Part shown: positions 10,292 through 19,174 of the stretch, piece by piece
Layout of the letters: each line of letters opens with the position of its first letter
Position numbering within the stretch: position 1 is the first letter of the stretch
DNA from: a virus
Taxonomy: Duplodnaviria > Heunggongvirae > Uroviricota > Caudoviricetes
Virus record (IMG/VR): IMGVR_UViG_2526164599_000004
DNA length: 43,594 bases
Reading direction: 5' to 3' (one strand)
Made by a program: the position numbers and the translations under genes
The notes under the pieces: generated by a model
Database searches by the model: none
What the model saw: only the letters and a program-made list of their open reading frames with translations
Told to the model about the DNA's origin: nothing

Positions 10292-10424
10292 TCTTTGGGA
10301 CTCCTGGCTGATTAAGTATGTCGATAAGGCGTTTCCATCCGTCACGTAATTTACGGGTGATTCGTTCAAGTAAAGATTCGGAAGGGCAGCCAGCAACAGG
10401 CCACCCTGCAATGGCATATTGCAT
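10260..10424 (-). CDS. cIII: Lambda CIII (FtsH inhibitor)
   Basis: Hand-translated 54 aa [54 protein letters not shown]; below the ORF-track cutoff. Confidence 0.85.
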   Translation of the reverse strand: MQYAIAGWPVAGCPSESLLERITRKLRDGWKRLIDILNQPGVPKNGSNTYGYPD

Positions 10425-10496
10425 GGTGTGCTCCTTATTTATACATAACGAAAAACGCCTCGAGTGAAGCGTTATTGGTATGCGGTAACGCAGCGC

Positions 10497-11047: not shown

Positions 11048-11248
11048 TCAGGCAGCTTTGTTGTTCTGTTTACCAAGTTCTCTGGCAATCATTGCCGTCG
11101 TTCGTATTGCCCATTTATCGACATATTTCCCATCTTCCATTACAGGAAACATTTCTTCAGGCTTAACCATGCATTCCGATTGCAGCTTGCATCCATTGCA
11201 TCGCTTGAATTGTCCACACCATTGATTTTTATCAATAGTCGTAGTCAT
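11048..11248 (-). CDS. ral: Lambda Ral (restriction alleviation)
   Basis: 66 aa MTTTIDKNQWCGQFKRCNGCKLQSECMVKPEEMF... Confidence 0.85.
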   Translation of the reverse strand: MTTTIDKNQWCGQFKRCNGCKLQSECMVKPEEMFPVMEDGKYVDKWAIRTTAMIARELGKQNNKAA

Positions 11249-11318
11249 ACGGATAGTCCTGGTATTGTTCCATCACATCCTGAGCATGCTCTTCGAACTC
11301 TTCAAATTCTTCTTCCAT
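11232..11318 (-). CDS. Lambda orf28-like acidic peptide
   Basis: Hand-translated 28 aa MEEEFEEFEEHAQDVMEQYQDYPYDYDY; overlaps the ral start. Confidence 0.5.
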   Translation of the reverse strand: MEEEFEEFEEHAQDVMEQYQDYPYDYDY

Positions 11319-11461
11319 ATATCACCTTAAATAGTGGATTGCGGTAGTAAAGATTGTGCCTGTCTTTTAACCACATCAGGCTCGGTGGTTCTCGTGTACC
11401 CCTACAGCGAGAAATCGGATAAACTCTATTCACCCCTACAGAGAGCAAAAGAGAAACGCCG

Positions 11462-12043
11462 ATGAACAACTCATGGTGGCAGGAACTAATGCATTTTTTC
11501 CTGCAAGGAATGACACTTAAACAGTTGATTCATATGCTAATCATCCTGATCATATTGATTATTGTTATGCCGGTAAGCGTAAAAGAATGGATAAACCTGC
11601 ATAATCCAGAAATCCTTCCTTATTATTGGATGTATTACATCCTGTTGTTCTGCGTTAGCTATGTGCTTAACGGTGTTGTTAATTCCGCTTATCACGCTGT
11701 GACTGAAAGAATTGAGGTATCCGCTGCTCAGAAGCGCAAATCTAAAGAAGAAAAATATGTGCAAGATTTGTTTGATTCGTTAACTCTTGGAGAAAGAGCG
11801 TATTTGGCATTCGCTGTAGCCGCGAATAACCAGCTAAAGACAGAAAAGGGAAGCCCTGAAGCAATCTCATTGCTCGAAAAAGGGCTTCTTATTCGGATAC
11901 CTTCTGCTACTGGATATCCTGAAATCGACCGTTTTGTTATCCCGGAACGCTATAGAAATGAGTGCTACATTCGGTTTGCCGGGAAGGCAGACAGCCTTAT
12001 GGATGAACTTATCGCTCAGGATAAGCATGGCAAAAACAAGTAA
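11462..12043 (+). CDS. sieB: Superinfection exclusion protein B
   Basis: 193 aa with hydrophobic N-terminal region; matches lambda SieB as recalled; plus strand between ral and N as in lambda. Confidence 0.85.
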   Translation: MNNSWWQELMHFFLQGMTLKQLIHMLIILIILIIVMPVSVKEWINLHNPEILPYYWMYYILLFCVSYVLNGVVNSAYHAVTERIEVSAAQKRKSKEEKYVQDLFDSLTLGERAYLAFAVAANNQLKTEKGSPEAISLLEKGLLIRIPSATGYPEIDRFVIPERYRNECYIRFAGKADSLMDELIAQDKHGKNK

Positions 12044-12059
12044 TTAGCAAATGAATTTA

Positions 12060-12332
12060 TCATCTCGCCGTCAGTTGTTTTGATTTCCGGTAGCCTGCCG
12101 CGTAAAGAGCTACGTTCGGAAGACAAGTTGAACCTTCATATTTTCTGGTCAACGTTGTCAGAGTTATCACTTCTGCTCTCATTGCTGGTTTGCGCTTGCA
12201 TTGCAAGACCACTCGTGAAGGGGTTGGCCTGTGTAGCTTGTCGGAGCTGATCGCCTCCTGACTTTGCAGATTTGCGCGACGAGCTCTACGGCGAGAAGCT
12301 GCGGTGCCTTTAAATTCTGTTTTTCTGGACAT
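12060..12332 (-). CDS. N-like transcription antiterminator (P22 gp24-type)
   Basis: 90 aa from MSRKTEFKGTAASRRRARRANLQ (arginine-rich motif); C-terminus ...VALYAAGYRKSKQLTAR resembles P22 gp24 (...VALYAAGHRKSKQITAR); GGAGG ribosome-binding site; not lambda N. Confidence 0.7.
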   Translation of the reverse strand: MSRKTEFKGTAASRRRARRANLQSQEAISSDKLHRPTPSRVVLQCKRKPAMRAEVITLTTLTRKYEGSTCLPNVALYAAGYRKSKQLTAR

Positions 12333-12430
12333 GGATTCCTCCCGAATAAACTTTGGCGATGCAATCTCGAAGCTCCTCCTGAGACGATTGCTTCGGCATT
12401 GCATCCCACAGCTTATGTGGTTGGGTGATC

Positions 12431-12476
12431 TGGCTTTTCAGCCACGTAGTCGAGAGTCGACGTTGTTTAAAGAGCC
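12431..12476 (-). promoter_or_regulatory. nutL: nutL (boxA GCTCTTTAA, boxB hairpin TGGCTGAAAAGCCA)
   Basis: On the minus strand upstream of N; same length and about 75% identical to the nutR element at 15119-15164. Confidence 0.6.
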
Positions 12477-12499
12477 TGCCAGTCTGTTCCATTTGGCTT

Positions 12500-12720
12500 C
12501 CAGCGTCCTGCTGACGGTTAAATAGTACGATATGTACTTTACAAGATCAATACAATTTGTTGTAAGTTGGCGTGGTTTTTTATAACGCTTTGTATTTAAT
12601 AGTGTTGTTTTTTAGCGTGGATGTATTGCCTCGGCGATGTAAGGAGAGATCAGAATTGCGTGGTTTAGTGGGTTGCATCTATTTATTTTTCAATAAATAC
12701 AATTGGTTATGTGTTTTTAG
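12500..12720. promoter_or_regulatory. OL/pL region (operator block about 12521-12552)
   Basis: AT-rich region upstream of nutL; contains a block homologous, in inverted orientation, to the OR block at 14836-14863, plus a second shared motif ACGCTTTGTA. Confidence 0.45.
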
Positions 12721-12740
12721 GTGGGGCGATCGTGAGGCAA

Positions 12741-12769
12741 AGAAAACCCGGCGCTGAGGCCGGGTTTTT
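12741..12769 (-). terminator. Intrinsic terminator ending the cI operon (bidirectional hairpin)
   Basis: CCCGGC-GCTGAG-GCCGGG stem-loop flanked by A-run and T-run, directly after the stop of the 258-aa gene. Confidence 0.65.
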
Positions 12770-13546
12770 CTAGGCTACCAGAGACTCAATCCAAGAGTCT
12801 CTGGTATGGAATGGCAACACTCGTGCGGTATCATTAAATAGTAGTGATAGTTGCTGTAGCTCAGGTGTTAACCCATCGCTGTCAACTATTACAAATCTAT
12901 TGTTTATGTCAGGAACGACCTGACTTAAGTCAACAATCTTCCCAACTGTTGAGTGGGCAGTATTCCATCCCTTACTGCTGGCAAGGCTTACCGTAAACCC
13001 GCGTTTTGGTGGTATTAGTCGAGACTCATTCCTTAGCGTTAACGGAACAGTAATGTTATGCCCACTAATACCTTTCACTTTTTCCTTTAAGGCTAGTCGC
13101 TTCCCAAGCCCTGCTGATTTTAAGTAACTGATTACACATTTTTCGAACTTATCGTCTTTGACCTCAGCATACCAATCAGCAGTTTGGGCGGATGCAAGAA
13201 TCCCACCACGAATAACATTTGCAGTTACCTGTCCAACGGACGACTCATCTGCCCACGCAGATATCTCTCCAGAATCATTTAATGAAATTCCTTGCGAAGC
13301 GAGTGATGACCTAATCAGATCAATTTTCTTTTTAGTCAGGTGGATGCCGCGTGATTCAATATTCATCAATGTATCGCAGTAGTCTGTAACCCTATACTGA
13401 CCACTCATCTCTTGAACGAATACACTTATCTGCTCACAATCATCGTAGTATGTGAAGGGACTAATAACGCGCAGCAACGTGTCGCTCATTGGGTGGCATT
13501 CAAACCCGAGCTTAGATATGACTGTTGAACACGTTACATTTCCCAT
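12770..13546 (-). CDS. Unknown protein B (258 aa), rexAB-position cassette
   Basis: Clean ORF co-oriented with cI; its ATG lies 13 nt inside the 3' end of the 180-aa gene; no family recognised; no obvious transmembrane helices. Confidence 0.6.
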   Translation of the reverse strand: MGNVTCSTVISKLGFECHPMSDTLLRVISPFTYYDDCEQISVFVQEMSGQYRVTDYCDTLMNIESRGIHLTKKKIDLIRSSLASQGISLNDSGEISAWADESSVGQVTANVIRGGILASAQTADWYAEVKDDKFEKCVISYLKSAGLGKRLALKEKVKGISGHNITVPLTLRNESRLIPPKRGFTVSLASSKGWNTAHSTVGKIVDLSQVVPDINNRFVIVDSDGLTPELQQLSLLFNDTARVLPFHTRDSWIESLVA

Positions 13547-14076
13547 GATAGCTGACCTGATTTATCTTGATTAGGTAAAGGTGGGCTGCCTTCATATATG
13601 ATATTAAGCGCCTCGCAAAAATAATTCCAGTAGCCAAAAAAATCATCTGGCTTGATGTTCGTTTCAAGCTTAAGTGCAATTTCTTCCCCAGCTGATTCGA
13701 AGTACATGTGATAGTGAGGACCTCGAGCCACCTCAACAAAATCTGGATGGTTCACTATAGATTTATTACGGTGTGGCTTGTTATCCGCAGGGTACGGGTC
13801 AAGCGCGTAAATGCGCCTGTCATGAAGAAACATCACAAATGAAATCTTCACTATATCCACCCCTTCAACGATAGGAGGACGCCAGTGAAGCATAAATCTT
13901 ATGCCTGTGATTGGGTTGCCAATTTCATCAAAAGCTTTGAGATCCAATTTAAACCAGATTGGGGTTCGTCCCTCACTTCCGGTCCATGTAACTCCGCTAA
14001 AAGTTACTTTTTTCAAGCGAGTAATAGCTTGGTCAACCTCTTTCTGGGTAGGCTTAAAGTCGCCTTTTTTAGCCAC
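13534..14076 (-). CDS. Unknown protein A (180 aa), rexAB-position cassette
   Basis: Clean ORF 46 bp downstream of the cI stop, same strand; no family recognised. Confidence 0.6.
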   Translation of the reverse strand: MAKKGDFKPTQKEVDQAITRLKKVTFSGVTWTGSEGRTPIWFKLDLKAFDEIGNPITGIRFMLHWRPPIVEGVDIVKISFVMFLHDRRIYALDPYPADNKPHRNKSIVNHPDFVEVARGPHYHMYFESAGEEIALKLETNIKPDDFFGYWNYFCEALNIIYEGSPPLPNQDKSGQLSWEM

Positions 14077-14122
14077 TGATTCGTATCACCATGAAAGTTA
14101 TTGTTAATACCTGTGCTTCTTG

Positions 14123-14782
14123 TCACCCAAACGTCTCTTCAGGCCACTGACTAGCGATAACTTTCCCCACAACGGAACAACTCTCATTGCATGGGATCAT
14201 TGGGTATTGTGGGTTTAGTGGCTGTAGAAACACCTGACCGCTATCCCTGATCAGTTTCTTGAAGGTAAACTCATCACCACCAAGTCTGGCTATACAGAAA
14301 TCGCCTGGCTCAACAGCCTGCTCAGGGTCAACCAGAATTAACATCCCGTCAGGAAAGCTGGGCTTGGAACCTGTTGGTGCGGTCATTGAGTTACCTTCAA
14401 CCTCAAGCCAGAATGCAGAGTCACTGGCTTTTTTGGTTGTGCTTACCAATCTCTCCGCATCGCCTTTGGTAAAGGTTCTGAGTTCTGGAGAGAACATCCC
14501 AGCCTGAACATGAGAAAAAACAGGGTACTCATATTGTTTTTTAACTGGGGCCGATGAGTATTCGCCAACAGGTGAAAATGTCCCGTCGTGGTTGAATGAT
14601 ATGTTATCAATACCAAGGTATTTAAACACCACACCAATATCACTAAGAGATGGATGACGAGATCCGCGCAACCAGTGTCCAATCCCACCCTGCGTCATAC
14701 CTAGCTCTTCGGCTAACTTCTCTTGAGTTATGCCGAGCTCTTTCATTCTGGATCTAGCCAGTTCATACCATTTCATTTTCAT
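14123..14782 (-). CDS. cI: CI-type repressor, hybrid: novel N-terminal HTH domain plus lambda CI C-terminal domain
   Basis: C-terminal about 135 aa (...[28 protein letters not shown]...[14 protein letters not shown]) matches lambda CI; N-terminal about 85 aa does not; start chosen at MKMKWYEL with AAGGA ribosome-binding site. Confidence 0.85.
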
Positions 14783-14892
14783 GTCCTTATTATTACGCTT
14801 TGTACTGGAACCATCCATGCACAATGTGTATTTTTACTTGTATTCGTAAAGTACATATTGTATTTTTTATTCGTGTTTACTATGGAGGGCAT
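14783..14892. promoter_or_regulatory. OR region with divergent pRM/pR (operator block about 14836-14863)
   Basis: Intergenic between divergent cI and cro; near-palindromic TACA/TGTA elements shared with OL; exact operators and promoter hexamers not resolved. Confidence 0.5.
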
Positions 14893-15108
14893 ATGAGCAA
14901 CCTACGAAAATATCGAGAGTCACTGAATATCTCTCAAACAACACTTGCTAAGGCAGTTGGATGCACACAGGGAGCTATCGGACATTGGGAATCTGGTCGT
15001 CGCTTCCCAGACCTTAAAACATGCCGTGCTCTTGTTGCGTGCCTAAACAAGTTAGGCGCAAAAGTCAGTCTTGATGACGTGTTCCCGCCGGAACACAAAG
15101 CCGCTTAA
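14893..15108 (+). CDS. cro: Cro-like HTH repressor (non-lambda)
   Basis: 71 aa from MSNLRKYRESLNISQTTLAKAVGCTQGAIGHWESGRR (helix-turn-helix); GGAGGG ribosome-binding site; divergent from cI. Confidence 0.75.
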   Translation: MSNLRKYRESLNISQTTLAKAVGCTQGAIGHWESGRRFPDLKTCRALVACLNKLGAKVSLDDVFPPEHKAA

Positions 15109-15118
15109 TAAGCGGATC

Positions 15119-15164
15119 CGCTCTTTGTAACAACGGACATTCGTCCTACGTCGCTGAAAAGCGA
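15119..15164 (+). promoter_or_regulatory. nutR: nutR (boxA CGCTCTTTG, boxB hairpin TCGCTGAAAAGCGA)
   Basis: Immediately downstream of cro; homologous to the nutL element. Confidence 0.6.
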
Positions 15165-15249
15165 GTTCCAAGATATCTGACCAACTAAGGCCATATGCGT
15201 TTCCACGCATACCTTTCAACTAACTATTCACTATTGGAAATCTTAAGAA

Positions 15250-15546
15250 ATGGAAAGAACAAGTTACAGCAAACTATCACAGCGTGACGTTGATCGCGCA
15301 GAAACAGATTTACTTATCAATCTGTCAGCTATTACCCAGCGCGGTCTGGCAAAGATGATTGGCTGTCATGAATCGAAGATAAGCAGAACGGACTGGAGAT
15401 TTATTGCTTCGGTCTTGTGTGCTTTCGGAATGGCATCAGACATCAGTCCGATTAGCAGGGCTTTTAAGTATGCGCTTGATGGACTCACCAATAAAAAACG
15501 CCCGGCGGCAACCGAGCGTTCTGAACAAATCCAGATGGAGTTCTGA
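15250..15546 (+). CDS. cII: CII-like activator, hybrid: novel N-terminus plus lambda CII C-terminus
   Basis: 98 aa ending ...LTNKKRPAATERSEQIQMEF, which matches the lambda CII C-terminus; N-terminal part differs. Confidence 0.8.
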   Translation: MERTSYSKLSQRDVDRAETDLLINLSAITQRGLAKMIGCHESKISRTDWRFIASVLCAFGMASDISPISRAFKYALDGLTNKKRPAATERSEQIQMEF

Positions 15547-15578
15547 GGTCATTACTGGATCTATCAACAGGAGTCATT

Positions 15579-16478
15579 ATGACAAATACAGCAAAAATAC
15601 TCAACTTCGGCAGAGGTAACTTTGCCGGACAGGAGCGTAATGTGGCAGATCTCGATGATGGTTACGCCAGACTATCAAATATGCTGCTTGAGGCTTATTC
15701 GGGCGCAGATCTGACCAAGCGACAGTTTAAAGTGCTGCTTGCCATTCTGCGTAAAACCTATGGGTGGAATAAACCAATGGACAGAATCACCGATTCTCAA
15801 CTTAGCGAGATTACAAAGTTACCTGTCAAACGGTGCAATGAAGCCAAGTTAGAACTCGTCAGAATGAATATTATCAAGCAGCAAGGCGGCATGTTTGGAC
15901 CAAATAAAAACATCTCAGAATGGTGTATCCCTCAAAACGAGGGAAAATCCCCTAAAACGAGGGATAAAACATCCCTCAAATTGGGGGATTGCTATCCCTC
16001 AAAACAGGGGGACACAAAAGACACTATTACAAAAGAAAAAAGAAAAGATTATTCGTCCGAGAATTCTGGCGAATCCTCTGACCAGCCAGAAAACGACCTT
16101 TCTGTGGTGAAACCGGATGCTGCAATTCAGAGCGGCAGCAAGTGGGGGACAGCAGAAGACCTGACCGCCGCAGAGTGGATGTTTGACATGGTGAAGACCA
16201 TCGCGCCATCAGCCAGAAAACCGAATTTTGCAGGGTGGGCTAACGATATCCGCCTGATGCGTGAACGTGACGGACGTAACCACCGCGACATGTGCGTGCT
16301 GTTCCGCTGGGCATGCCAGGACAACTTCTGGTCCGGTAACGTGCTTAGCCCGGCCAAACTCCGCGACAAGTGGACCCAGCTCGAAATCAACCGTAACAAG
16401 CAACAGGCAGTCGTGACAGCCAGCAAACCAAAACTCGACCTGACAAACACAGACTGGATTTACGGGGTGGATCTATGA
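15579..16478 (+). CDS. O: Lambda replication initiator O
   Basis: 299-aa ORF matching lambda O; contains the ori iterons. Confidence 0.95.
   Translation: MTNTAKILNFGRGNFAGQERNVADLDDGYARLSNMLLEAYSGADLTKRQFKVLLAILRKTYGWNKPMDRITDSQLSEITKLPVKRCNEAKLELVRMNIIKQQGGMFGPNKNISEWCIPQNEGKSPKTRDKTSLKLGDCYPSKQGDTKDTITKEKRKDYSSENSGESSDQPENDLSVVKPDAAIQSGSKWGTAEDLTAAEWMFDMVKTIAPSARKPNFAGWANDIRLMRERDGRNHRDMCVLFRWACQDNFWSGNVLSPAKLRDKWTQLEINRNKQQAVVTASKPKLDLTNTDWIYGVDL
15927..16060 (+). repeat. ori: ori-lambda: four about 18-bp iterons (ATCCCTCAAAACGAGGGA-like) plus AT-rich region
   Basis: Four tandem iteron copies at about 15927-16012, followed by an A/T-rich stretch, all inside O. Confidence 0.85.
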
Positions 16479-17176
16479 AAAACATCGCCGCACAGATGGT
16501 TAACTTTGACCGTGAGCAGATGCGTCGGATCGCCAACAACATGCCGGAACAGTACGACGAAAAGCCGCAGGTACAGCAGGTAGCGCAGATCATCAACGGT
16601 GTGTTCAGCCAGTTACTGGCAACTTTCCCGGCGAGTCTGGCTAACCGTGACCAGAACGAACTGAACGAAATCCGCCGCCAGTGGGTTCTGGCTTTCCGGG
16701 AAAACGGGATCACCACAATGGAACAGGTTAACGCAGGAATGCGCGTAGCCCGTCGGCAGAATCGACCATTTCTGCCATCACCCGGGCAGTTTGTTGCATG
16801 GTGCCGGGAAGAAGCATCCGTTATCGCCGGACTGCCAAACGTCAGCGAGCTGGTTGATATGGTTTACGAGTATTGCCGGAAGCGAGGCCTGTATCCGGAT
16901 GCGGAGTCTTATCCGTGGAAATCAAACGCGCACTACTGGCTGGTTACCAACCTGTATCAGAACATGCGGGCCAATGCGCTTACTGATGCGGAATTACGCC
17001 GTAAGGCCGCAGATGAGCTTGTCCATATGACTGCGAGAATTAACCGTGGTGAGGCGATCCCTGAACCAGTAAAACAACTTCCTGTCATGGGCGGTAGACC
17101 TCTAAATCGTGCACAGGCTCTGGCGAAGATCGCAGAAATCAAAGCTAAGTTCGGATTGAAAGGAGCAAGTGTATGA
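16475..17176 (+). CDS. P: Lambda replication protein P (DnaB loader)
   Basis: 233-aa ORF matching lambda P. Confidence 0.95.
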   Translation: MKNIAAQMVNFDREQMRRIANNMPEQYDEKPQVQQVAQIINGVFSQLLATFPASLANRDQNELNEIRRQWVLAFRENGITTMEQVNAGMRVARRQNRPFLPSPGQFVAWCREEASVIAGLPNVSELVDMVYEYCRKRGLYPDAESYPWKSNAHYWLVTNLYQNMRANALTDAELRRKAADELVHMTARINRGEAIPEPVKQLPVMGGRPLNRAQALAKIAEIKAKFGLKGASV

Positions 17177-17536: not shown

Positions 17537-17783
17537 ATGAAAAAACTAACCTTTGAAATTCGATCTCCAGCACATCAGCAAAACGCTATTCACGCAGTAC
17601 AGCAAATTCTTCCAGACCCAACCAAACCAATCGTAGTAACCATTCAGGAACGCAACCGCAGCTTAGACCAAAACCGAAAGCTTTGGGCTTGCCTTGGTGA
17701 CGTTTCGCGTCAGGTTGAATGGCATGGTCGCTGGCTGGATGCAGAAAGCTGGAAGTGTGTGTTTACCGCAGCATTAAAGCAGC
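17537..17783 (+). pseudogene. ninB: ninB 5' fragment (first about 82 codons) truncated by IS629
   Basis: MKKLTFEIRSPAHQQNAIHAVQQILPDP...FTAALKQ matches the lambda NinB N-terminus; the frame runs into the IS inverted repeat at 17784. Confidence 0.85.
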
Positions 17784-17825
17784 TGAACCGCCCCGGGTTT
17801 CCTGGAGAGTGTTTTATCTGTGAAC

Positions 17826-18716
17826 TCAGGCTGCCAGATCATCGTTTCCGATGGAAGCATAATAAGCTTTTTCTGCTTCTGCCGGTGGGATATGGCCCAG
17901 CCTTTCCAGCAATCGTCGATTGTTATACCAGTCCACCCACGTGAGTGTGGCCAGCTCCACTTCTGTCCGGTTTTTCCAGCTCTTACGGTGTATTACCTCC
18001 GCTTTGTAAAGGCCATTGATGCTCTCCGCCATCGCGTTGTCATACGAGTCACCAGTACTTCCTGTTGATGCCAGTAATCCGGCTTCCTTAAGCCGCTGTG
18101 TGTAGGCCAGCGATACATACTGAGAACCTTTATCACTGTGATGGACTGTGCCGGACGGTCGACGGGCCCATAACGCCTGCTCCAGAGCATCCAGCACGAA
18201 TGTCGTTTCCATAGACGATGAGACCCGCCACCCCACGATGTATCCGGCAAACACATCAATGATGAACGCCACATAGACGACCCCCTGCCATGTGCTGACG
18301 TAAGTAAAATCAGCCACCCACAACTGGTCAGGACGTTCTGCCACAAACTGACGGTTTACGCGGTCGCCTGCGGCAACGGCTTTCCGGCTGACGGTAGTGC
18401 GGACCTTTTTACCCCGGAGAACACCGGCAAGTCCCATAACCGCCATGAGGCGCGCCACTGTACATCTGGCTACCCTGATTCCTTCCCGTAACAACTGACG
18501 CCAGACTTTACGCACACCGTATACCTGATGATTCCCATCGTATACGCGCAGTATCTCTTTCTTCAGCCAGTCATCGCGCTGCGCACGGGCACTGCGTTTA
18601 TCAGGATGATGTCGCTGTTGCTGACAGTGGTAATACGTTGACGGGGCAATATGTAGTTCACTGCATACCGGTCCGACCCCGTACAGCTTACGCAGCTTAT
18701 CCAGCAGTGGCATCAC
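17826..18716 (-). CDS. IS629 transposase OrfB
   Basis: 296 aa, integrase catalytic core; recalled as IS629/IS1203 OrfB. Confidence 0.85.
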
Positions 18717-19039
18717 TTTTTCCAGAGGCGGTCGAACTCCGCCTTCGCAAAATAAGCGGAAGCCTGGCGAAGGATATCGTTACTGCGGCGCAGTTCACGA
18801 TTTTCACGTTCCAGCTCTTTCAGACGCTGACGTTCAGCGGTGGTGAGCCCGCCATCACCGCCTCCGGTATCCCGCTCATGCTGGCGTACCCAGACACGCA
18901 GAGTCTCCGGTGTACAGTCAATCTTTGGGGCAATGGAACAAATTGCCGCCCACTGTGAGTCATATTCGCCCTGACTTTCCAGAACCATACGAATCGCCCT
19001 CTGACGGACTTCGGGGGAAAAACGAGTATTTTTAGTCAT
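18713..19039 (-). CDS. IS629 OrfA (HTH)
   Basis: 108 aa [26 protein letters not shown]...; lies upstream of and overlapping orfB, the usual IS3-family arrangement. Confidence 0.85.
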
Positions 19040-19174
19040 CCTGTTTACCTCTTTCTCAGGGAGTTTAGTCTCCAGGATTCCCGGGGCGGTTCAGTTCATC
19101 AGTCCTCGACGGATGTTTACTACCGTATCCAAAGCGGCATTGATGGCGATCGGGCAGGGCGTCAGGAGGGCTGC

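Follow-up and report, generated by a model that had tools for sequence, protein, structure and literature searches.

Some lambda-like phages carry an immunity region that only partly resembles that of lambda, and each such region raises the question of whether it encodes a new immunity specificity or one already described. We asked this of positions 12060-15546 in a 43,594-nucleotide stretch of viral DNA (Caudoviricetes; IMG/VR record IMGVR_UViG_2526164599_000004), here called the window, which derives from a lambda-like E. coli phage or prophage. An earlier note, made from the sequence without database searches, had described these positions as a mosaic immunity region with recombination joints inside the repressor gene cI and inside cII, a novel cro gene, and a homologous pair of nutL and nutR sites. 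Our analysis indicates, with high confidence, that the early-regulatory (immunity) region seen here is intact, comes from a lambda-like E. coli phage, and belongs to the VT2-Sakai type defined by the alleles cI2c, cro4, and N2. The immunity type is already known, the mosaic joints are textbook lambdoid module boundaries, and, by analogy, the switch most likely operates like that of lambda.

An immunity region of the VT2-Sakai type

Pfam, PHROG, and NCBIfam searches assigned every gene of the region (two cargo genes had no NCBIfam match), and the gene content follows directly as N-nutL-pL/OL-terminator-two cargo genes-cI-OR-cro-nutR-cII-oop terminator. This arrangement reproduces the lambda architecture N-nutL-OL-(rex slot)-cI-OR-cro-nutR-cII-oop-O and contains the elements of a lambdoid switch, with cI and cro diverging around a tripartite OR, a tripartite OL beside N, and a repressor that combines helix-turn-helix (HTH) and S24 domains.

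Sequence identities place the region within the immunity type of VT2-Sakai and Stx2 phage II, with a near-identical cI and Cro and the same operators. Its cI protein is 99.6% identical to those of Stx2 phage II and PhiR11_1, and the VT2-Sakai cI equals it except for a known stop codon and one residue; Cro and N are each 100% identical to their counterparts in all three phages. The nutL and nutR sites and the joint between cI and lambda DNA are also the same in VT2-Sakai and Stx2 phage II. The alleles cI2c, cro4, and N2 were named in a study that reported lambda CI to be identical to CI2c at the carboxy terminus, the amino terminus being unique (Smith et al., 2012; PMC3430580). The cro gene is therefore not novel, and the new immunity type implied by the earlier note gives way to a well-known one. 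Outside the shared cassette the window departs from these relatives: Stx2 phage II and VT2-Sakai carry an all-HK97-type cII, an HK022-like O, and other open reading frames (ORFs) between cI and OL, whereas the window has a lambda-type cII tail, O, and P, a pair of DUF6978-like and DUF1828 cargo genes, and a lambda-like backbone with no stx genes.

This immunity type is widespread. Of 5426 complete E. coli genomes, 776 (approximately one in seven) contain the immunity-specific DNA (14534-15117), 64 phage records encode the cI N-terminal domain and Cro with at least 80% identity, and the entire 3.6-kb interval, cargo included, is 99.8% identical in five genomes. The window as a whole is best matched by PhiR11_1, Chlobot, ev017, and 2G7b, with 97% identity across 55-62% of its first 25 kb; the 2G7b and ev017 records, whose flanks are 99.2-99.6% identical, were deposited as complete phage genomes, and the PhiR11_1 record gives E. 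coli K-12 MG1655 as the host. As filed, the region adds another example of an immunity type that is very common and already has a name, and it matters little on that account. The same cassette governs the induction of clinically important Stx2a prophages of the Sakai type.

A hybrid repressor and a non-lambda Cro

The repressor gene cI (allele cI2c; annotated at 14123-14818, minus strand; Pfam HTH_3, E 2e-10, and Peptidase_S24, E 1.3e-28) contains a joint that separates DNA-binding specificity from the cleavage and oligomerization domain. From the residues YEYPVF to the C-terminus, 135 of 136 residues (99.3%) are those of lambda cI, which bears out the lambda-type cleavage/dimerization domain reported in the earlier note. 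At the DNA level, blastn and base-by-base comparison show 94.9% identity to lambda over 14123-14533 and a drop to approximately 30% from 14534, setting the joint at 14533/14534, some ten codons before the Ala-Gly cleavage site. Because of this position, the hinge, cleavage site, and oligomerization domain are all lambda's, and the C-terminal domain carries the Ala-Gly site in VQAGMF together with the Ser and Lys motifs EGNSMT and FTFKKL. A lambda-type hinge and S24 domain are thus fused to an HTH_3 N-terminal domain of the phage-L family, which is 23% identical to the N-terminal domain of lambda cI and likewise 23% identical to that of P22.

The cro gene (allele cro4, 71 aa; 14893-15108, plus strand; Pfam HTH_3, E 4e-12) encodes an HTH_3-type protein outside the lambda Cro fold family, with no significant match to lambda Cro; its closest solved structure is 28tn_A (E 4.5e-17). 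Alignments against a comparison set of lambda, P22, 933W, and HK97, with phages 434 and 21 outside it, excluded close kinship of the cI N-terminal domain or Cro to any of the four, and a search of phage records found none beyond the VT2-Sakai group with more than 60% identity to the cI N-terminal domain. The DNA-binding parts have their closest classical relative in Salmonella phage L/ST64T (Cro 69%, c2 N-terminal domain 48-55%). Together with a cII N-terminal part that is 28% identical to lambda's, these comparisons uphold the earlier view that neither the DNA-binding domain of cI nor cro, N, or the beginning of cII is lambda-type, and the joints at 14533/14534 and at approximately 15481-15484 confirm that the mosaic breaks inside cI and cII.

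The annotated start of cI, ATG 14818, falls inside predicted OR2 (14817-14833). When the gene is compared with three other alleles, its only two non-synonymous differences lie at codons 7 and 12, both among the 12 codons that this start adds, and every difference downstream of this extension is synonymous (15 relative to Stx2 phage II). From this pattern we infer that cI starts downstream, and the true start is likely ATG 14782, giving a protein of 219 aa in place of the annotated 231 aa, or lies two codons later. Database records of this cI therefore probably begin 12 codons early, inside OR2. ATG 14782 sits 7 nt past an AATAAT hexamer that could serve as the -10 element of pRM, which suggests a leaderless cI mRNA, as in lambda. 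With a pRM start at 14782, OR3 would span -9 to -25 and OR2 -35 to -51, nearly the geometry of lambda (-11 to -27 and -34 to -50); this correspondence argues for both a leaderless message and activation of pRM from OR2.

Operators and promoters

Three putative 17-bp operators lie between cI and cro (OR3 14791-14807, OR2 14817-14833, OR1 14849-14865; no strand assigned), and three more lie on the minus strand between the terminator of the cI operon and nutL (OL1 12523-12539, OL2 12548-12564, OL3 12581-12597). Aligned in one orientation, the six sites yield the consensus WWNNACRNNNTGTAYTK, and all of them fit the pattern ACRNNNTGTAYT. The clustering of this pattern is directly visible: the 43.6 kb hold 9 matches where 0.76 would be expected, 7 of the matches being inside OL and OR, an enrichment that is only partly independent since the pattern was built from the same six sites. 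As an independent check, a search of phage L with this pattern recovers its OR1-3 and OL sites (8 hits, 0.14 expected), and in the lambda immunity region the pattern has no match. Because the pattern fits the sites of phage L and none in the lambda immunity region, heteroimmunity with lambda is supported, and the expectation that immunity should differ from that of lambda holds, as it does from the 23% identity of the two cI N-terminal domains. The operator motifs are unrelated to those of lambda (TATCACCGC-type, 17 bp), and DNA identity to lambda ends at 14533. The operator sites of phage L lie at 1584-1623 and 2395-2466 of locus L010.

OL and OR also share an inverted block, whose existence the earlier note had recognized at 12521-12552 and 14836-14863; alignment moves it to 12514-12542 and 14846-14874, where 29 nt are 83% complementary around a 13-nt exact core (GTAAAGTACATAT). 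Its local alignment score of 33 compares with 14.2 +/- 2.1 in 1000 shuffles (maximum 28).

Published and deposited sites agree with the predicted ones. Four of the six were compared directly with published VT2-Sakai operators: OR1, OR2, and OL1 show no difference, and OR3 matches at 16 of 17 bases. OL2 and OL3 fall at positions annotated in the Stx2 phage II record and differ there by a few bases. That GenBank record (2003) annotates six putative 17-bp operators at corresponding positions, and operators have been predicted for phages said to be of the Sakai Stx2a prophage type (PMC4587872). The VT2-Sakai operators have been used in gel-shift assays (sequences in Table S1; PMC10742460), in which lambda CI bound them with an apparent Kd of 3.7-6.4 uM, compared with 0.2-0.35 uM on lambda OR1/OL1 (PMC10742460).

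Candidate promoters were placed around these operators. By analogy, pR would have a -35 hexamer TTGTAT at 14838-14843 and a -10 hexamer TATTTT at 14861-14866 (plus strand), and pRM a -35 hexamer TGGATG at 14812-14817 and the -10 hexamer AATAAT at 14789-14794 (minus strand); alignment with pR would put pL at TTGATC (-35, 12545-12550) and TACTAT (-10, 12522-12527) on the minus strand. As placed, the hexamers of all three promoters are 17 bp apart, OR1 overlies the pR spacer and -10 hexamer, and OL1 lies in equal register on pL. The cI operon ends at an intrinsic, tImm-like terminator (12741-12769, minus strand) with the GC stem ACCCGGC/GCCGGGT followed by a T-run, a bidirectional hairpin within a stretch (12644-12771) that is 90.6% identical to the lambda sequence downstream of rexB.

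Set beside lambda as a whole, the region has in common with it the cI hinge and C-terminal domain (99.3%), a tImm-like terminator, the oop-O module, and the final 21 cII residues, and its OR2 and OR3 stand at nearly the same distances from the probable start of pRM transcription. It differs in the cI N-terminal domain (23%), its HTH_3 Cro, unrelated operators, a different N family, a boxB tetraloop in place of the lambda GAAAA pentaloop, and operator spacing. Phage L has the same operator core ACRNNNTGTAYT and a similar OR spacing (34 + 26 bp there, 32 + 26 bp here); in contrast to the window, it has a P22-like c2 C-terminal domain (47% identical to that of the window), P22-type N (gp24) and nut sites, and a different host.

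A model for the switch

In the model that we infer from these features, which covers promoter positions, the cI start, operator binding, and all activities, cI dimers would bind the three 17-bp operators at each of OR and OL and repress pR and pL. At OR2, centered near -43, cI would probably activate pRM, whose transcript probably begins at ATG 14782 without a leader, as in lambda, and the lambda-type hinge and S24 domain should allow RecA-stimulated self-cleavage and dimer-dimer contacts. Cro, an HTH_3 paralog of the cI N-terminal domain, would bind the same operators and favor the lytic branch. N2 would bind the GAAA-loop boxB of nutL and nutR and, with boxA and Nus factors, render RNA polymerase resistant to termination, and cII would activate pRE at a TTGC-N6-TTGT site within its own gene to establish lysogeny.

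Several points weigh against assigning the region to a working VT2-Sakai-type switch. VT2-Sakai itself is uninformative about function because its cI is a pseudogene, and our literature search found no experiment on the cI2c repressor with its own operators, the sole binding measurements being those of lambda CI on VT2-Sakai sites. A consensus promoter scan missed pR, pL, and pRM alike, so these promoters are placed by alignment and analogy only, and as placed they match 3-5 of 6 bases per hexamer. The center-to-center operator distances (OR1-2 32 bp, OR2-3 26 bp, OL1-2 25 bp, OL2-3 33 bp) also depart from those of lambda (24, 23, 24, and 20 bp, respectively) despite a cooperativity domain that is approximately 99% lambda's; the pairing scheme of the operators could therefore differ from lambda's, and reading the sequence between OR1 and OR2 by eye revealed no fourth operator that fits the consensus. 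Such an operator arrangement, unlike lambda's yet combined with lambda's cooperativity domain, is worth studying. Finally, two IS3-family copies elsewhere in the window mean that the prophage as a whole may not be fully functional.

Alternative readings

One alternative holds that the region has been decaying within a defective prophage and that its switch no longer works. The stop codon in the VT2-Sakai cI and the two IS3-family insertions of the window fit such decay, which we nevertheless judge very unlikely: all ORFs within 12060-15546 are intact, the operators, nut sites, and terminators are conserved, and near-identical regions occur in phage records deposited as complete, one of them with E. 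coli K-12 MG1655 as its host. Moreover, relative to three other alleles, cI has undergone only synonymous change past codon 13, which indicates purifying selection. More improbable still, to the point that we set it aside, is that the cI N-terminal domain, cro, and operators constitute a new, undescribed specificity. They show no relationship at a useful level to lambda, 434-type, or P22 counterparts, as the 23% identity of the N-terminal domain and the missing lambda match of Cro illustrate, yet identical alleles are found in VT2-Sakai (sequenced in 1999), Stx2 phage II, 1717, 2851, the PA series, ev017, 2G7b, and PhiR11_1. The 64 phage records and 776 complete E. coli genomes, the published allele names (PMC3430580), the four operators that match published VT2-Sakai sites, and the six positions annotated in Stx2 phage II all tell against novelty, and identity to Stx2 phage II, VT2-Sakai, and PhiR11_1, combined with the literature, rules out a novel immunity type.

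A specificity that is known in another guise deserves more weight, namely one that is the same as, or cross-reactive with, that of Salmonella phage L/ST64T, in effect an 'immL' on a lambda backbone. The identities of Cro (69%) and of the cI N-terminal domain (48-55%) favor this, as do likely recognition-helix stretches that are nearly the same (TQGGIGHW in cI here against TQGAIGHW in phage L; TQGAIGHW in Cro against TQGAIGHY), the fit of the phage L OR1-3 and OL sites to ACRNNNTGTAYT, and the near-equal OR spacing. Against it, the outer and central operator positions differ, and among lambdoid repressors an identity of approximately 50% in the DNA-binding domain usually accompanies altered specificity. 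On balance we consider a shared or cross-reactive specificity with phage L unlikely.

N and the nut sites

The antiterminator gene N (allele N2, 90 aa; 12060-12332, minus strand; Pfam PF25694 N_peptide, E 2.3e-32) starts at ATG 12332, preceded 5 nt upstream by the Shine-Dalgarno sequence GGGAGG; a 114-aa ORF extending to 12404 is an over-extension of it. The earlier description of N as P22 gp24-like is correct as to family (39% identical to gp24, E 5e-12), but the N proteins of HK97, 933W, and H-19B are nearer, with 56-58% of the 90 residues identical to HK97/933W N and a gap of approximately 37 residues where this longer N1 type has additional sequence. N2 shares the invariant C-terminus of HK97, 933W, and P22 N and has its own arginine-rich motif (GTAASRRRARRANLQ). 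Its last 64 nt (12060-12123) are common to P22, HK97, and 933W, and a P22-like block of 87% identity (11068-12123) covers ral, sieB, and these final 64 nt; because the ral-sieB block runs into the end of N, a third mosaic joint lies inside this gene.

The nutL site (12431-12475, minus strand) consists of boxA GCTCTTTAA at 12467-12475, a spacer hairpin GTCGA-CTC-TCGAC at 12449-12461, and boxB UGGCU-GAAA-AGCCA at 12431-12444. The nutR site (15119-15164, plus strand) has boxA CGCTCTTTG at 15119-15127, a spacer hairpin GGAC-ATTC-GTCC at 15135-15146, and boxB UCGCU-GAAA-AGCGA at 15151-15164. The two sites are identical in 41 of 56 aligned columns (73%, close to the 75% or so claimed in the earlier note; score 42 against 15.5 +/- 2.1 shuffled, maximum 25), and both contain the boxA sequence GCTCTTT and the boxB core GCTGAAAAGC, so that their proposed homology stands. 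RNA folds give each boxB a 5-bp stem and a GAAA tetraloop closed by U-A, and the stems differ by a compensatory C-G/G-C change (UGGCU/AGCCA against UCGCU/AGCGA). Folded as a whole, the nutL RNA (12425-12478, minus strand) reaches its minimum energy (-14.1 kcal/mol, z -2.35) with the boxA region paired to the 3' arm of boxB, as an alternative to forming two hairpins; the centroid fold of nutR does have the two hairpins.

This system resembles the N1 system (H-19B, 933W, HK97) and P22 gp24 in the C-terminal 20 residues and arginine-rich N-terminus of the protein, and in the boxA, boxA-boxB spacer hairpin, and boxB stem of the RNA; two hairpins have been reported in H-19B nutR (PMC3526286). It differs from N1 in the length of the protein (37 residues less in N2), in the arginine-rich motif, and in the boxB loop, a 4-nt GAAA in place of the 5-nt GACAA. 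The nutR site is homologous to 933W nutR from 15118 onward and aligns with the nutR sites of 933W and HK97 with the loss of the loop C (GACAA to GAAA). P22, H-19B, and 933W have the boxB pentaloop GACAA, and lambda has GAAAA or GAAGA, whereas both sites here have the tetraloop GAAA.

Across IMG/VR, the link between N and boxB is directly observed. The nutL site is conserved in 79 of 80 loci with N2, and nutR in every one of the 74 N2 loci that extend far enough to cover it; the boxB loop reads GAAA throughout the 80 N2 loci and GACAA throughout the 80 loci with HK97-type N (N1). Mismatches between N allele and loop type number zero among the 149 loci that include both nut sites, a count against which it must be held that the loci are redundant and therefore represent far fewer independent lineages. 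Between the nut sites lie at least six operator-cI-cro cassette classes, and four of these are found in combination with both N types. The mosaic is thus a module exchange in which the operator-cI-cro cassette is swapped between conserved nut sites, and N is either transferred or selected jointly with both boxB loops.

In the known complexes of boxB pentaloops, one base of the loop is extruded, and in lambda the extruded base matters for NusA engagement. We tentatively suggest, as a proposal whose chances we place somewhat below even, that N2 with its GNRA (GAAA) tetraloop boxB forms a fourth, uncharacterized class of N/boxB recognition beside those of lambda, 21, and P22/H-19B. If so, a natural system without a flipped base would bind RNA, and perhaps recruit NusA, differently, and the perfect co-segregation of N allele and loop across swappable cassettes would reflect strict specificity. 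No description of an N2/GAAA-boxB class was found in the literature searched, older subscription papers falling outside that coverage. The pairing of N2 with a GAAA tetraloop offers a natural test of the purpose of the extruded base.

cII and the replication module

The second joint falls near the end of cII (15250-15546, plus strand; Pfam Phage_CII PF05269, E 7e-34). Residues 1-77 are 93.5% identical to 933W, 88% to HK97, and 28% to lambda, and 20 of the last 21 residues are those of lambda, in agreement with the lambda-type tail of about 20 residues that the earlier note had recognized. Base-by-base comparison places the DNA crossover at approximately 15481-15484. The oop RNA terminator, a terminator scan match at 15495-15522 (minus strand), forms the left end of a lambda-type oop-O-P module, and 15484-16693 (O region) is 98.9% identical to lambda. 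Since the crossover coincides with the oop terminator and the start of lambda-identical O, the hybrid cII is the edge of the replication module, and its joint is the point at which the lambda-type oop-O-P module is attached. This junction is polymorphic: cII is all-HK97-type in Stx2 phage II and VT2-Sakai and has the lambda-type tail in PhiR11_1, ev017, and 2G7b. A predicted CII-box-like TTGC-N6-TTGT site (TTGCTGTAACTTGT) lies inside cII at 15259-15272 on the minus strand, with the same offset from the cII start codon as the annotated C1 site of P22.

Cargo genes in the rex slot

The two genes at 12770-14076, which lie within the coordinates of the earlier note and went unmentioned there, overlap by 13 nt, fill the rex slot of the cI operon, and end at the lambda-like terminator. 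The proximal gene (13534-14076, minus strand) encodes a DUF6978-like protein of 180 aa (Pfam DUF6978, E 7e-5, under the family cut-off; PHROG 2017, E 7e-74), and the distal gene (12770-13546, minus strand) encodes a DUF1828 protein of 258 aa (Pfam DUF1828, E 2.5e-10; PHROG 1960, E 3e-119, function unknown). Neither has an NCBIfam match, all homologs are labeled 'hypothetical', and the AlphaFold model of the 180-aa protein is poor (mean pLDDT 56). Histidines H102, H110, H121, and H123 of the 180-aa protein are conserved. Weak matches to the PADLOC candidate PDC-M24 fall in the expected order and adjacency (A, E 4e-4, on the 180-aa protein; B, E 5e-7, on the 258-aa protein). The pair has no DNA match in the phage collection. 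Among complete E. coli genomes, 13 contain it, as do several IMG/VR loci, in one case beside a different immunity cassette; a copy with 66% identity directly follows unrelated cI genes in Yersinia prophages. A role in exclusion or defense is a reasonable guess, by position only. The phage ev017 carries a divergent cargo pair in the same slot.

The surrounding window

The region is flanked on the left by sieB, ral, and ea10 and on the right by the lambda-type O and P genes. Rfam searches of the whole window at gathering thresholds returned no match at all inside the region, including none to a nut, boxB, or oop family, and a tRNA scan of the window found none. Outside the region, the Rfam family Lambda_thermo (cIII thermoregulator) matches at 10379-10437 on the minus strand with 88.5 bits. 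The two IS3-family elements are identical 1312-bp copies in direct orientation (17783-19094 and 23078-24389), each with orfA and orfB on the minus strand, an ALIL frameshift pseudoknot (Rfam, 2 hits), and the ends TGAACCGCCCCGGG. Copy 2 is flanked by GGAC on both sides, copy 1 has no matching flanks, and between the two lie approximately 4 kb with rusA and a porin gene of the OmpC family.

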